Shown here piece by piece: positions 1 to 12,000 of a DNA stretch of 64,000 nucleotides. How positions within the stretch are numbered: position 1 is the stretch's first letter; every line of letters starts with the position of its first letter. The stretch is taken from the NCBI GenBank assembly GCA_963798085.1, contig CAWCRS010000012.1:1-64000 (forward strand), in the 5' to 3' direction. A program made the position numbers. Source of the DNA: an uncultured Gemmatimonadales bacterium (GTDB lineage Bacteria; Gemmatimonadota; Gemmatimonadetes; Longimicrobiales; RSA9).

Positions 1-3000
1 GCAAGCGATCACGCTTTGGAGCAGTACGCCACACGTCTGGAACGCGACCGCAGTGCAAACCGGCTTCGCTACAGCCCAGCCCTTGGCCTGACGACGAGCA
101 CGCTGCGGACGAGGCCCTATCGGGCGAACACCAACTTTGGCTCGGACGGGTAGCCGCTACGTTGCGGCCCGTGAACTCAGCGTGCACGAACAGGTCGCGG
201 GGATCAAGCTCGCGTGGCCCAACTTCGTTCACGAGGCTGGAGACGGCCGTTTGGTCAGCCGTGGGAAGCTGCGGCCCACTCCAGCTATCCGGGAGTACGC
301 GGTCCGCATCGAGTATGCGCCTAGAGAGTACCCGCGAGTGTTTGTGGTAGACCCTGCGCTTTCGCCACGCGAGCCAAACGGCAAGATACCGCACGTGTAT
401 CCGGGACGACGGCCCTGCATCTTCTACCCGAAAGTACGTGAGTGGACGAGCGGAATGCGAATCTCTGAGACGATCGTTCCTTGGCTAATGCGTTGGTTAT
501 TTCACTACGAGATTTGGTCGGTCGCTGGCGTGTGGTACGGTGGCGGGATAGAGCATCGAGGCAACAATGACGAGTGAGAGCTCAGTCCCTTTTCGCATCC
601 TCAGTCTCAATGGTGGCGGAAATAAGGGCACGTACACTGCGGCGGTTCTTGCCGGGATCGAGGAAATCACCAGGAAACGTATTGTTGACCACTTCGACCT
701 TATCGTCGGGACTTCGACGGGCGGCATCGTCGCGTTGGCTCTCGGGATAGGTTTGCCAGCAGGTGATATCCTTCGCTTTTACGAAGAGAAGGGCCCATCG
801 ATATTCCCGTTGGTCGGTGTTCAGGGCCGGCTTTGGGCGATGCTTCGGCATATGTTCAGGTCGAAGCATTCAATTGAGCCTCTTCGTTCGGCACTCGCAA
901 ACGTGCTTGGTGATCACGTCGTGGGCGATTCGCTTACCAGGCTGGTGCTCGTCTCATACGACGGGTCGAGCGGCGACGTTTACATGATCAAGACCGCGCA
1001 TCATCCGCGTTTCAAGAATGACTACTCAATGCGAGCCATCGACGCGGCGTTAGCGACTTCCGCCGCCCCGACTTTCTTGCCGGCGTTTGTTCGACGAATG
1101 GTACCAAGCTGGTTGACGGTGGCGTGTGGGCAAATTGCCCGGCAGCGGTCGCGGTGACCGAGGCAATGACGGTCTTGGGACAGCGGTCCGGCGAATTTGA
1201 CTTGTTAAGTGTCGGCACGACAGAGAGTCCGTTGCATGTGTCAAGACGCAAGCTTGCTGGCGGTATCCTTCAATGGGCACTGTTCGGACCGGACCTGCTC
1301 CTACAGGCCCAGGCTAAGGGAGCGCTCGCGCAAGCGAAGCTTCTTACGGGCGCGGCAGATCGAATGCTTCGACTCAACGAGGTCGTTGAGCCGAAGCGGT
1401 TTTCGCTCGACAATCCATCAAGCATCCAGGACTTAAAGGCGCTGGGGATGAAGGCAGCGCGACACTACGGGAGGATTGTGGCGGAGCGCTTCCTTGCGGC
1501 GCCTGTCTCAGAGTTTGTGCCATATCATGGTCCGCGCTCTGAGGCCGCGGTCTCCAACGCTGCAATGGATCACCGGCAAGCACCGACACGGCAGATTGAC
1601 CGCGGCGCGCCTTCGTAGCGAGATTCACAGAGACGAATGTCGAATACAATGCCGCTCCTGCAGCGCCCCTGTCCTGATTTCTCTACAAGCCTGTCCTCAA
1701 TACTCACTGCGACTCCGCAGCCCTTTTCCGCCAGAGCACCCTGTTTCAGCTAACGTCTCTGCTGTTCACGACGTGCCGGAGCCGACCGCAAGGGCGGCGC
1801 AGGCATGTCCGCGCCCTTCACAGGGCGACTCGCGTCGGCCACTGCGCGGCCGGCGGCCGACAGGCCGCCGTGCGTGAAATACCGTGTTAGGTGACGTTGG
1901 ACCCACCCTTCTGAAGCGCGCCCTCTGGGCTGCGTTGCGAGACCTACGGGTCCGGGAATTCACGACGCCATTCATCACCAGGGCGCTCGTGGCCGCGTGC
2001 AAGTTCTCGCAATAGGTCTTAAGGTGCTTCCACTTCGCCTGCGGAACCGCTGAGAGGTTATGCGCAAGCGCAAGCGACGAGCGCATGGCAGTCCGAGCGT
2101 TTTCGTATCGAAACGCGGAGAAGCGCCATTCCGTCGCTCTGCCAAGAACCGCGTTGTGGACGAGTAGCCGCGAATCTGCAGGCGGGTGCACCGCCCAATC
2201 GCGAAAGCGGAAAATCTCTCGGATTCCCTCTCGGAGTCCACGGTAATCCTGGCGGTTCGCCAAGGTGAATGCCAGGCGAAATACTTCGCTCGTTTGCTTC
2301 CATCTTGCCGTCTGGTTCTTGGCCCAAGCGGCTTGGTGCAGCGCAGGCACATCAATGCGTTCCTTGACATGTGAATACAGGGCGTCAATGGAGATGGCGG
2401 CAGCTGTTACTGCCTGCATTGATGCGTGGAATTCAGCCTCGAGGAGAGGATATGCTTCTTTCGCCTGCCCTGTGGCTGCCACCTCGAGCGCCAGCCGAGC
2501 ACGTCTTGCCGCCGCGACATGCCCGGTGCCGATTCTTAGCCAGTGCCGGACCAAGTCCATTCTCAGAGCGAAGCCATCATGCTCGACCCTGAAGGCGCCG
2601 TCTGCTGGCACGATGATTCGAAACCCTTGAATGGACAGATCTGCTCCGTCTGGAACTATGATGCCAGCGGCGTTGGCTCTCGCGCTGGGAGCCGGCTTGG
2701 CGGCCTGCGGCGGTTCGTCGGAAATGCTCATTGGCATCGATCTCTTGGGTGCTTCGACTTTCGAGGCTAATGGACTACGTACTGCTCGCGGCGATCGATG
2801 GATATGGCCCAACGTTCGCATACAGTTCCCGGGGAACGATTCCCACTTGCCTTGAGGCGGCTACCTCCCCCGGCCGATCATCTGTGCTGACGAAGCCTCC
2901 TTCGTTGTTACTTGGCATGCACGCGCTGTGGGTCCAATGTCACCTAACGTGAGTAAGTTCACGAACCCGCGGGAGCCGGGCGAAGCACGGCGCAGCGGGT

Positions 3001-9000: not shown

Positions 9001-12000
9001 CGGGTTGCTCCACACGCGGTCCGGCAGCATGCGGAGAACTGCGCGGGCGCGAGGGGTGTCATCGCAGGCGAGGGCAATGCGTCCGTCGGGTCGGAGCCAG
9101 ACGCGCGGCTCGCCGGCTGCCGGAGCCAGCCGGGCTGTCGCGGCGGAGGCGCGATGCTGCGCCGCGGTCTGTTTCGCTGATGAAGCGACCTGTGCAGCAG
9201 TGGCGCGATCGACAGGCGGACGTGCGGATGAGACGCCGGGTTCGGTGCGCGACGCGCGCGGCGCGGGTCTGGCGGGCACGGATTTGTGGTCATTGCGATC
9301 GTGGTCATTGCGATCGTGGTCATTGCGATCGTGGTCATTGCGAGCGTGGTCATTGCGCGCGCGGTCGTGGTGTGCGGGAGTCGATGGCGCGTCGGGTCGG
9401 GGTCGCGAGGATGTCGCAGGCGAAGCGGGTGGCAGCGTCGCAGTCAGCCGTTCGCGTTGAACCGGATCGGGCGATGCGGTTCGAGGCGGGACGGGTGGCG
9501 GAGGCGGTGTCGTCGCCTGATATCCGTGCCGTGGCAGGGATTGCCGTTGCGGTGGCAAGGGGCGTGTGGTTGGCGGTTCTGCCGCCGGTGTGCGGCCGGC
9601 CGCCGGTGCGCGTGCGGCGCGGGCTGGAGTGGCGGGTGGAGGCACGGGACCGGCTTCGGGGCGTTGGAGCGACGCGGCCGGCGTGGCTTCTAACGCTGTG
9701 CTTGTATCGGGCGCGAGCGCGCGACGCGGCACGGCATCGTGCTGTGCGGGTGCGCGGGTCGAGGCGAGGGGCGGGATCGCCTGTACAGTTGCATCGGTCG
9801 GCAATGGTCGATGCTGGCGGGCCAGCCGGTCGGCCGGGTCCGGCGGAGGCGGTGTGGCCGCCTGGTGTCCGGCATGGGACGGTTGAGGCGGTTGCGGAGG
9901 CGACCGCCGGGTGTGCGGCGTCTGCGGTGGCACTTTGCGAGCCGCTCCCGCTGTGTGGGTGGCTGCAAGCGAAGCGGTCGACGTCGCTGGCAAGGCCAGT
10001 GGTGGGGCCGCGGCGTCGGGGCCTGGCAGTGCTGTGGCGGGCGCGGGTTCTAACGCGGTGCTTGGGTCCGTCGTTCGTGTGACCGGCGGCGTCGCATCCG
10101 GCTCCATGTGTACGCGCACCGTGCAGTGTGGAACGAACGGCGGTTGCGACGCATCGGGCAGCAGCGGTCGGCGGCGCCAGGATGTGCGGTGCGGCGGATC
10201 GGGCTGCGGTGCGGCTGCGGGCGCAGCGGGCTGCGCGGGGCCGGGGATTGTCGCCGCGGGTGGCGCAGCAGGCGACTTCGTGCCGTCGGTTTCGGCTTGT
10301 GCCGGTGGCGAGCCGGTCCGGGCAGCAGCTGGGCGAGTGTCAGGCATCCTGTCCCCGTGTGTGCAGTGCGGCCAGGAGTTTGTGCGATACGAGGGGGCAG
10401 AGCCATGGCTGGGCGGGTCGCGAACGAGTGCGCGCTGCGAGTGTCGGCGCCATGGTGTCGCGGTCGGGATGTCGATCGCTGGTCTGCCACGGGGCGGGCG
10501 TCGGCAAGACCGGCGTCCAGCGGAATTCGAGACGAAATCGCACATCACCCGGCGAATCGCCTCGCCGGCGCGGCATTGAAGGTGCGCATGATCCATCAGT
10601 GGCGCGGGCACGACAGCCGCGGCGGGCCGACTCCTTCGGTGCACATCGGTGCGCGTTGCCGAGGCCCGCGGCTGTGTCCCGGGACATGCGTGGAGACGGG
10701 TCGACGCGCCACTGAACGACGCCAACTGAACGACGCGCCAACTGAACGACGCGCCAACTGAACGACGCGCCACTGAACGACGCGCCACTTGAATGACGCG
10801 ACACTGAACGACGCGCCACTGAACGACGCGCCACTGAACGACGCGCCACTGAATGACGCGCCACTGAACAATATGCATGGCGTGATCGGTGCGGGCCTCG
10901 AGGCGGACGGGACGGCTCCAGGTCGCAGAATCGAGACCGTCGCCTTCAATGTGTAATGGACTGTTATGGCGGCCGCCATCACCTCGTCGCCCATGGAGCC
11001 GGTGAACCGCCGCCTGTACGCCCGGCGTGTAACCCGCTGGCAGTCAGTGTCGTGCCCGATCGTGCGGAGCAGTGCTGGCAGGCTTCTGCGTCGAGTTGAT
11101 TGACGCGGATACCACGGGCGAGAAGCGGTCCGTGGCCTCCGTCCGGCGTGTGAAACAGTGCAACCCGGGAACCGGGGTGCATCCGGGCATCAAATGGCGA
11201 ACCACGCCAGACCGTCCGGCGTGAAGCCGCCGTCGAGAAGACGAGCGACGTTGGGGTGCTCGAGCGTCGCGAGGATGCGGCGCGGTGGAAGCTCCTGTCG
11301 CAACGCGAACGAGATCCGCCGATCGCACTCCCTGACAGCGTCCGGGGACCATACGGTGCACACCAGACCATATGTTGCAACCATCGGCCGGCAAGCCGGA
11401 AATCGTGGGACATCGTACGTGGCGGTACGCGCGACGGTTGAATGGAAGGAAACCGGGGTTGAACGAGGAGGTGTGGGAGGATTCACGTGGGGACGAGTGG
11501 GCTGTATCTCGACGCCACTTGTGCATTCGGCCGCAGCGGCAGACCGCCCGGCGCGTTGCACCTCCTCGAAACGGCGCTGCTAATCCTTTGTCGGCTCGCC
11601 TTGCCGGATCGGCTGCGGCCGCGGCCTCGGTGCGAGTTGTCCGGTTACAGTCACGGCGAACCGGCTGGTGCCCGCGGGTGTCGCCGTCTGTTCACGCGGG
11701 ACATTACCCGCTCTGCCCCTGTGAGCCCTGCTCATTCTGCGCCTCCCACATCAGCTGCCTCTCGCTGCCGCTCTCCCCATAATCAATCCGTACATCGGCC
11801 TGCCCTGTGACCGGGACGGTGATCAGCCTTGTTCCCAGTCGATCTCGCACTCTTCGACGCCCGTCCATTCGAGGAAGCGATCCACCGGACTTACGCCGCA
11901 GAGGCGCCTGAAGAGATTGCGGTCGCGGCTAACGTCACGATCTACGCCGCAGAGTCGCCTGAAGAGATTGCGGTCGCGGCTAACGTCACGATCTACGCCG

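Follow-up and report, generated by a model that had tools for sequence, protein, structure and literature searches.

The additional (I2) domain is considered indispensable for integron integrases. It is also used as the criterion by which these enzymes are defined and filtered (Néron 2022; Ghaly 2022). Recombination of a folded single strand by enzymes that carry no I2-like domain has been described for the CTX phage: according to Escudero et al. 2016 (PMC4792948), XerCD integrate the folded single-stranded attP into dif, and the attP stem without extrahelical bases mimics double-stranded DNA. The same paper sets out a chicken-and-egg problem of I2 versus extrahelical bases, for which an 'intermediary form' is called for.

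The window analysed in our work is the stretch of 64,000 nucleotides at the start of contig C12 of an uncultured Gemmatimonadales bacterium (source genome G000), a soil bacterium. The genome-wide survey's note had described in it an integron-like cassette array headed by an IntI-related recombinase devoid of the additional domain, and the array, its orientation, the recombinase-proximal lone R' and the absence of that domain were all found. We assign a probability of roughly 0.7 to the reading that the locus represents the head of a variant sedentary chromosomal integron, whose recombinase would be the array's own integrase. The family to which it would belong is bacterial and akin to IntI and XerA; I2 would never have been present in it, or at least is not present now, and most of its members carry a HARP-like domain instead. 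The features of the recombinase (hereafter a member of the short family) are the following:

7882..9135, minus strand: tyrosine recombinase gene, minimum extent; stop codon 7882-7884, start probably upstream of the ATG at 9030
8929..9105, minus strand: N-terminal HARP-like domain, residues 11-69 of the 417-aa translation of 7885-9135
8548..8784, minus strand: SAM-like core-binding domain (PF13495), residues 83-161 of the 382-aa form
8008..8445, minus strand: catalytic domain (PF00589, 138 bits) with R, K, H, R, H and Y
8203..8268, minus strand: site at which canonical IntI bears its additional (I2) domain; 20 residues in this protein versus 62 in VchIntIA

The earlier gene call (7882-9030, minus strand) is retained as to its stop and abandoned as to its start, since a start at the ATG of 9030 truncates a conserved N-terminal domain that begins at ~9105; there is no ATG, GTG or TTG near 9105, and the GTG at 9279 is the next in-frame candidate start. 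The catalytic RKHRHY set reported for this protein corresponds to R247, K272, H337, R340, H363 and Y372, all six being invariant columns in an alignment of 41 short-family members whose open reading frames are intact. Integron integrases are indeed its nearest curated family and structure, as the survey had proposed, with TIGR02249 as the top NCBIfam match (219.7 bits, cut-off 265; profile positions 2-179 and 235-313 are covered) and 2a3v (VchIntIA, IntI4) as the best PDB sequence match, while Foldseek places 5hxy (XerA) and 2a3v in the lead. The recombinase shares with XerA, XerC and XerD an insert-free catalytic-domain length and the overall fold (5hxy), but differs from them in being linked to attC arrays and in scoring below every Xer cut-off, i.e. 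200.7/220 for XerA (NF040815), 175.6/335.15 for XerC (TIGR02224) and 167.8/329.6 for XerD (TIGR02225).

The alignment to 2a3v is split into two stretches, and the gap region (query 255-276 versus chain 178-241) holds the 20 residues that correspond to 62 in VchIntIA, in agreement with the claimed absence of the additional domain. The spacing GLR..HxLRH, counted only in rows where both motif patterns matched, is 91-92 residues in the short family (92 in the window's protein; a few members at 85-99), whereas canonical IntI has 133-134 and Xer 97-99. In the new tree canonical IntI (11 rows) again forms one clade, with support of 100/100 and with all short rows outside; the 10 Xer rows are set apart at 100/100, and the bacterial short group occupies one side of a branch supported at 87/95, so that the short form is not a recent deletion product of canonical IntI.

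The HARP domain is a fork and junction binder in SMARCAL1, in which it is joined to an SNF2 ATPase, whereas here a HARP-like domain, newly found in our work by profile comparison and cut by the earlier gene start, is fused to a tyrosine recombinase. Both follow the order strand-strand-helix-strand-strand-helix (block-mean pLDDT of 92-96 in the predicted structure of the domain in the window), and the profile similarity extends over ~38 residues including the P..W/Y......W motif. The family profile has 4o66_A (SMARCAL1 HARP) as its top PDB match (E 1.2e-4), and Pfam HARP (PF07443) matches 7 of 14 family segments, one of them above the gathering score (26.0 versus 25); the same Pfam search of the window's own N-terminal segment gave no match, the structural match to HARP is weak (Foldseek E 0.49), and a VIA-align search with the domain returned unspecific folds only. 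The domain occurs in 0 of 16 canonical IntIs and is absent from 4 of 32 short-family members of Gemmatimonadota, among them the homologue of genome G190, which yet heads an array.

Downstream of the recombinase the window contains the following features:

7531..7680, minus strand: putative attI-like region ending in CATTCAAC where it meets the junction; 7639-7670 contains three similar octamers
7524..7530, minus strand: lone R' core GTTAGCT without R'' partner, array head; presumed crossover G|TT
7152..7313, minus strand: attC 1 (class B, nhmmer)
6776..6930, minus strand: attC 2 (class B, nhmmer)
5998..6676, minus strand: cassette 3 cargo, HAD-type hydrolase split between two frames (6092-6676 and 5998-6393), a probable frameshift
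5751..5913, minus strand: attC 3 (class B, nhmmer)
3103..5722, minus strand: cassette 4 cargo, 68-aa ORF and 810-aa SMC/LmuB-like ATPase
2934..3091, minus strand: attC 4 (class B, nhmmer)
1766..2821, minus strand: cassette 5 cargo, 351-aa ORF with no family match
1740..1899, minus strand: attC 5 (class B, nhmmer)
137..1618, plus strand: last, incomplete cassette, CBASS-type E2 and patatin phospholipase (the latter in two ORFs), oriented against the array

On the minus strand CATTCAAC (7538-7531) is followed by GTTAGCT (7530-7524); given the stop at 7882-7884, the distance of 351 nt that had been stated for the attI-like junction is therefore exact. The clustering of octamers in the attI-like region is only suggestive because their pattern was derived from those very bases. 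From this junction five class-B sites of ~150 nt run co-directionally on the minus strand off the contig start, again as described. The homology between cassettes 1 and 2 begins at ACGTTAGC, the latter cassette being a diverged paralogue of the former (89% column identity). A simple scan of 7300-9500 for a cassette promoter Pc yielded neither a sigma-70-like site nor a terminator. The locus resembles sedentary chromosomal integrons whose IntI runs in the cassette direction in its Xer/IntI-group recombinase with RKHRHY, its attI-type junction at G|TT, attC sites with R'', L'', L' and R' boxes able to fold, and cassettes of ~0.4-2.7 kb, mostly of one direction (39 of 55 have their longest ORF on the assigned top strand), with defence genes among the cargo.

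The attC sites themselves differ from those of canonical integrons. They are long (~145-190 nt) and branched, and the consensus fold of 25 class-B sites comprises 28 pairs with compensatory changes in 10; L-box sequences vary among genomes with complementarity kept. An L-box bulge is present in 11 of the 13 sites parsed in three canonical-IntI arrays, whereas the L box is continuous in 55 of 57 parsed sites of short-type arrays; within G000, class-A L boxes are bulged in all seven of those located (7/7) and class-B ones are continuous in 29 of 35. A second new finding is that short-family attC sites are without the L-box bulged base which canonical-IntI arrays show within this order. When bulged bases were counted across 20 arm columns, the result was noisy and gave no clean difference.

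The recombination that we propose would start with a ~150-nt attC which, as a single strand, folds into an R box, an unpaired central bubble, an uninterrupted L box of 6-8 bp and a branched tip, and which would thereby mimic a double-stranded core site, as the CTX attP fold does for XerCD. One monomer would bind each of the R and L boxes (two in total), one strand would be cut at AAC/GTT and exchanged with the double-stranded attI-like site beside the gene, and the resulting junction would be resolved by replication. The HARP-like domain may aid recognition of folded or branched DNA, replacing the contacts of I2 to extrahelical bases, and read-through transcription would reach the cassettes from the side of the recombinase. 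The likeness to CTX/XerCD, i.e. an I2-less recombinase acting on a folded single strand, holds for the short recombinase by hypothesis only, and a difference is that the latter is dedicated, lying beside its own site and a many-cassette array.

The survey had also claimed that relatives repeat this layout, and this was borne out. Of 13 loci in Longimicrobiales whose downstream sequence spans 15 kb or more, 11 have a co-directional array beginning 380-1560 nt past the stop, position and direction being constant, and canonical IntIs of Longimicrobiales are likewise co-directional with their arrays. The same layout occurs in a Bacillota MAG (L009), a Spirochaetia MAG (L032), a Bacteroidota MAG (L056) and metagenome contigs L161, L165, L169, L184 and L211. 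Arrays in relatives were detected by self-similarity alone, two generic attC scanners being neither sensitive nor specific; by this approach no array was found within 17.5 kb at L131 (G094), nor in the 6-10 kb downstream of many more distant homologues, and L124 (G036) has degenerate attC fragments only.

Considering that G000 also possesses, as reported, an intact canonical IntI (C1:447485-448429, 409.9 bits), this enzyme might move class-B cassettes in trans, with the short recombinase lying beside a secondary insertion site or being otherwise employed. G000 carries 44 class-B sites on C2, the number given before, 8 on C3, 5 on C1 and 5 on C12, and two clusters have no adjacent short gene, at C3:688449-695852 and at C1:476295-482489, the latter 28 kb downstream of IntI as the survey had it. 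However, the canonical IntI has its own attC array of a different class (class A) with the L-box bulge, and this array stops 12 kb before the C1 class-B cluster, with ordinary genes between. Of 50 genomes matched by the short family, 15 also have a canonical match (E<=1e-60) and 35 have none; six array-bearing Longimicrobiales genomes show no canonical IntI, and genus g16 has the short family in 5/5 and canonical IntI in 0/5. In three of those six genomes, G106 (one contig), G130 and G033, PF00589 has 3 matches per genome, which are XerD, an XerC-like gene and the short recombinase. G081 (one contig) carries three copies of a 383-nt cassette: those at array positions 1 and 2 match each other at 100%, and the remaining one reaches 99.5%. 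The copies are bounded at R' GTTA, and the first adjoins an attI-like junction ~120 nt past the stop. Such copies, of 100% and 99.7-99.8% identity in G081 and G106, neither of which has a canonical IntI, point to site-specific cassette movement, and we consider action in trans unlikely.

Quite improbable, in our judgement, is a Xer-like enzyme performing a classical double-strand reaction (island integration/excision or dimer resolution), beside which arrays accumulate for other reasons. Its absent I2, its score close to the XerA cut-off, the names XerD or tyrosine-type recombinase that sources give to its relatives and the many homologues without a detected array would fit such an enzyme. Yet XerD and XerC-like genes exist on C7 and C8 as genes distinct from the recombinase, as noted previously, the relation of array to gene is constant in the 11 loci, and past the G|TT junction, where the conserved sequence adjoining the gene stops, the cassettes differ. 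G096 and G054, the sole close genome pair showing the attI boundary, are ~94-95% identical through the gene end plus 229 nt and diverge at GCAGTA|GTTA; that this pair also has canonical-IntI-like matches counts against the preferred reading. The least probable alternative, that the arrays are inert, CALIN-like relics on which the recombinase no longer acts, would suit the divergence of cassettes 1 and 2, the frameshifted cassette gene and the degenerate fragments of L124, but is opposed by the intact frames and invariant catalytic residues, the identical or near-identical copies in G081 and G106 and the different first cassettes of G096 and G054.

The most likely reading is thus a functional variant integron whose integrase has no insert, the functional link between recombinase and array being one that we infer. 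The proposal that the array continues from the start of C12 into the end of C2 is not established, given that the C3 end has equal orientation and that no overlap was found among contig ends; the C12-C2 join is unproven and no better supported than C12-C3.

In IntegronFinder these arrays would presumably appear under CALIN, the class for attC clusters that lack an integron integrase. They share with CALIN the lack of a nearby protein matching an IntI-specific profile, but have a head, formed by a conserved adjoining recombinase gene and a lone R' junction. A wider statement, that insert-less, mostly HARP-fused recombinases are working integron integrases of a lineage apart from canonical IntI, spanning Gemmatimonadota, Bacteroidota, Spirochaetota and at least one Bacillota MAG, is tentative, and we put it at rather less than even odds. 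If it is true, attC-type recombination would be possible without I2 and would be older than I2 or have arisen twice, the short-family elements would be the 'intermediary form' named in Escudero 2016 (PMC4792948), and many arrays now classed as CALIN would gain an integrase and become complete integrons. The integron census and the list of phyla without integrons would change if the insert-less family heads long, apparently active arrays, and the co-evolution of single-strand attC recombination with its recognition domain would become directly testable. G000 offers a natural I2-less system alongside a canonical integron in one genome, and an I2-less, HARP-fused recombinase at a cassette array bears on the origin of integrons.

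The minus-strand open frame ending at window position 7882 represents a tyrosine recombinase gene, the product of which is composed of a SAM-like core-binding domain and a catalytic domain (Pfam). Its top NCBIfam model is TIGR02249 (integron integrase), which reaches 219.7 bits against a cut-off of 265 and aligns in two pieces (profile positions 2-179 and 235-313); the Xer models also score under their cut-offs (XerA 200.7/220, XerC 175.6/335, XerD 167.8/330). Among solved structures, the top sequence match is VchIntIA (2a3v), also in two stretches, between which 20 residues are present in this short recombinase versus 62 in VchIntIA. 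From these split alignments and residue counts it follows that the additional (I2) domain of integron integrases is absent, as the genome-wide survey's note had claimed. A predicted model of the protein (mean pLDDT 85.2) has XerA (5hxy) and 2a3v as its first-ranked Foldseek matches. The catalytic RKHRHY residues named in that note proved invariant in a 41-row family alignment, and its statement that XerC and XerD are separate genes agrees with the finding of XerD and a XerC-like gene elsewhere in the genome.

The gene start that had been placed at an ATG at position 9030 could not be maintained. An alignment of upstream frames contains a conserved segment of ~60 residues upstream of the recombinase core (motif P-G-R-x-W-(D/N)...W-x-(V/I)-P), which in the window begins near 9105, upstream of that ATG, and the recombinase thus has an N-terminal domain that the earlier gene call missed. 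There is no ATG, GTG or TTG near 9105, the next in-frame GTG being located at 9279. The segment is predicted to adopt the order strand-strand-helix-strand-strand-helix (block-mean pLDDT 92-96). The Pfam HARP model matches seven of 14 such segments (E 6.9e-6 to 0.21, one above the gathering score) as well as two additional homologues, the window's own segment giving no match to it, and a profile built from 32 segments has 4o66_A, the HARP domain of SMARCAL1, as its top PDB match (E 1.2e-4). Searched with the N-terminal domain alone, Foldseek had no match within E<=0.001 (4o66_C came fifth, at E 0.49) and VIA-align gave only common alpha/beta folds (Z of 6 or less). According to the family's own profile, this HARP-like domain is carried by 28 of the 32 members from Gemmatimonadota and by 47 of the 69 from other bacteria, and by none of eight archaeal relatives, 16 canonical IntIs and 15 Xer proteins. 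It is not indispensable for linkage to an array, because the homologue of G190, one of the Gemmatimonadota members, is without the domain and yet heads one.

Upstream of the gene, a 998-aa proline/alanine-rich frame on the minus strand, inside window 7500-10500, was considered as coding and rejected, being without similarity to the upstream frame of the nearest orthologue, in which it is not conserved. Six copies of a 15-nt tandem unit (window 9271-9381), which the open frame translates as DRNDH repeats, are situated within this same 3-kb stretch, which exhibits a strong GC skew (+0.25 to +0.47).

Features of the array in the window, and the canonical integrase of the same genome:
Window 7538-7531, minus strand: attI-like end CATTCAAC, exactly 351 nt past the recombinase stop
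Window 7530-7524, minus strand: R' core GTTAGCT, directly after CATTCAAC
Window 3103-5535, minus strand: 810-aa SMC-like ATPase cargo, best PADLOC match LmuB (Lamassu)
Window 137-1618, plus strand, opposite to the array: CBASS-type E2 and patatin phospholipase effector
C1:447485-448429: canonical IntI, 409.9 bits

The attI-like junction reported earlier was therefore read at its expected distance and sequence. Downstream of it, on the same strand, are five repeats of ~150 nt, which start with ..TAAC, end with GTTA.. and form, when folded, an R box and an L box separated by an unpaired spacer, with a branched tip; the consensus fold of 25 sites of this class (class B) from the genome comprises 28 pairs, with compensatory changes in 10. 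Since the junction at 7530 has an R' without an R'', it represents the head and not the tail of the array, and the co-directional attC array described behind the recombinase is upheld. Cassettes 1 and 2 are diverged paralogues whose shared sequence begins at ACGTTAGC, upstream of which one is preceded by the attI-like sequence and the other by the interior of attC 1. Rfam gave no match in window 1-9500, and a simple scan of window 7300-9500 returned no promoters or terminators.

In three of the four complete window cassettes, the longest ORF is on the minus strand and ends just ahead of the next attC; over all class-B arrays of the genome, the longest ORF is on the corresponding strand in 39 of 55 cassettes. 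The window cargo includes a probably frameshifted HAD hydrolase in addition to the LmuB-like ATPase and the CBASS E2 and patatin pair. No partner gene for the ATPase was recognised in its cassette apart from a 68-aa ORF, and the patatin effector, which is read as two overlapping ORFs (567-1157 and 1124-1618), is therefore probably frameshifted.

Signs of cassette movement were found in relatives. In G081, assembled as one contig, a 383-nt cassette occupies array positions 1 and 2 with 100% identity and a third copy is 99.5% identical; all copies are bounded at AACGTTA, and the first adjoins non-attC sequence ~120 nt past the recombinase stop. More cassette copies with the same boundaries are present in G106 and G066. 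G096 and G054, both of which also contain canonical-IntI-like matches, share ~94-95% identity through the gene end and 229 nt more, and part at GCAGTA|GTTA into different cassettes. From the three g16 genomes no attI boundary could be read, as their sequence diverges directly after the stop, and other genome pairs were too distant. In the interval from the recombinase stop to the first cassette, G081 contains CGAAATTCG twice as a direct repeat (L116 4937-4972) and G066 contains GATCCCGTTCCC-like units several times (L006 10853-11095); such repeats could be accessory binding sites of an attI. Small parts of the window are contained in three soil-metagenome contig sets from one sample: one short contig omits a 383-nt cassette copy and another carries a cassette-1-like piece behind a class-B attC, neither being decisive. 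The closest relative of the locus among metagenome contigs reaches 57%, thus none is near-identical, and no RNA runs are listed among the sequencing runs containing the stretch.

For this genome, the main rival explanation is that its canonical IntI acts in trans on the class-B cassettes. Behind that gene, ten co-directional class-A attC sites of ~125 nt each extend up to C1 463965, and this array is separated by 12 kb of ordinary genes from the class-B cluster of C1. The 62 class-B sites of the genome (12 contigs, order Longimicrobiales) are distributed over the end of C2 (44), C3 (8, four internal and four at the contig end), the end of C1 (5) and C12 (5), the contig of the window. The four internal C3 sites (C3:688449-695852) form a CALIN-like cluster far from any recombinase match. 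As to the proposed join of the C12 start with the C2 end, the orientation fits, which holds equally for the C3 end; contig ends of the genome have no overlaps, and gene content does not decide between the two, a CBASS cyclase sought at the C2 and C3 ends as an operon clue being present at neither.

Bearing on the same rival, short-recombinase matches (E<=1e-40, a set that includes more distant paralogues) occur in 50 of the 201 genomes of the order, incomplete genomes included, and canonical IntI matches (E<=1e-60) in 44, the two together in 15, so that 35 of the 50 are without a canonical match. Of 20 loci fetched, 13 extend 15 kb or more past the gene. Arrays were detected by self-similarity after two generic attC scanners of our own had performed poorly, one based on R-/L-box complementarity (3/5 known sites) and one on R box and fold energy (about half of known sites), both with many false matches. 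An attC-like array on the gene's strand, starting 380-1560 nt past the stop, was present in 11 of these 13 loci, in line with the recurrence claimed for the Longimicrobiales; G036 has just two degenerate fragments and G094 no array. Each lineage has its own attC class, and the L boxes vary in sequence while remaining complementary. A canonical IntI match at E<=1e-60 is missing from six of the 11 array genomes (G081, G106, G021, G130, G033, G066), and a PF00589 search of five of these six returned only three tyrosine recombinases each in G106 (one contig), G130 and G033, namely the short recombinase, XerD and a XerC-like protein.

Outside the order, arrays are located in the same position behind homologues in Bacillota, Spirochaetia and Bacteroidota MAGs and in five metagenome contigs. 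For many homologues of greater distance whose contigs run on for 6-10 kb past the gene, self-similarity detected no array. Contigs very often stop 60-500 nt past the gene end of a homologue, as is expected if an assembly-breaking repeat array follows. In a MAG labelled Bacillota (label taken as given), a homologue with 44% identity has five attC sites behind it (L009 11633-16192); complete integrons are reported as very rare in Bacillota (Néron 2022). In Psychroserpens sp. (L043 30-8140), attC-like repeats are situated upstream of the homologue's 5' end and not downstream of its stop, possibly a classical integron of divergent layout whose recombinase is short and HARP-bearing. On the single chromosome G085:C1, a 297-aa short recombinase with 41% identity to the query is encoded seven times, in identical and dispersed copies. 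One copy immediately follows a partial canonical IntI match (2204724-2205398), and the whole resembles a mobile element of a related subfamily.

The sites themselves differ between the two kinds of array. A one-base bulge on the R''/L'' arm within the L box is present in 11 of 13 parsed sites from three canonical-IntI arrays of the order (e.g. GGGT[G]AAGCTG and GTTT[G]CTAC), versus an L box without interruption in 55 of the 57 sites parsed from short-recombinase arrays, the box being poorly located in a few. Within the genome under study, every class-A L box that could be located (seven) has the bulge; the 62 class-B sites comprise 29 with a continuous L box, 6 with a bulged one, 11 without a located L box and 16 without located R boxes. 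The 3' spacer exceeds the 5' spacer by 2-4 nt in both types alike, which supports the same orientation for both, and a count of gaps across 20 attC arm columns, for extrahelical bases on the other arm, was noisy and gave no clear difference. According to Escudero et al. 2016 (PMC4792948), the I2 domain recognises extrahelical bases and the two co-evolved. An I2-less integrase beside bulge-free attC sites fits this co-evolution, and the attC difference goes in the direction that the protein predicts.

Néron 2022 and Ghaly 2022 take the additional domain as the defining feature of IntI, and Cury 2016 found 50 recombinases close to attC sites that lack the IntI-specific profile and concluded that these are not IntI. 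Within the passages covered by our literature search, there was no report of a HARP domain linked to an integrase and no description of integrases that lack the insert and head attC arrays. A tree computed over 284 columns, in which 10 of the 70 rows are Xer and served as outgroup, supports Xer (100/100) and canonical IntI (100/100, long stem), and places 43 bacterial short rows on one side of a branch with support 87/95, six archaeal and candidate-phyla short rows lying unresolved between this group and the others. Genomes flagged as unpublished (G078, G002; also G153, G095) contributed two rows of the tree and part of the tallies, and no claim is based on them alone. On the evidence of the tree, the short family did not arise within IntI through a recent deletion; it may be either the sister of IntI or the stock that gave rise to it. 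IntI, together with XerCD on CTX phage DNA, serves as the model for a mechanism in which the short recombinase would act on folded sites in a comparable manner. The observation of the survey is confirmed and its interpretation supported: with a probability of roughly 0.7, we regard the system as a working integron variant in which an integrase without I2, usually bearing a HARP-like domain, acts on bulge-free attC hairpins.
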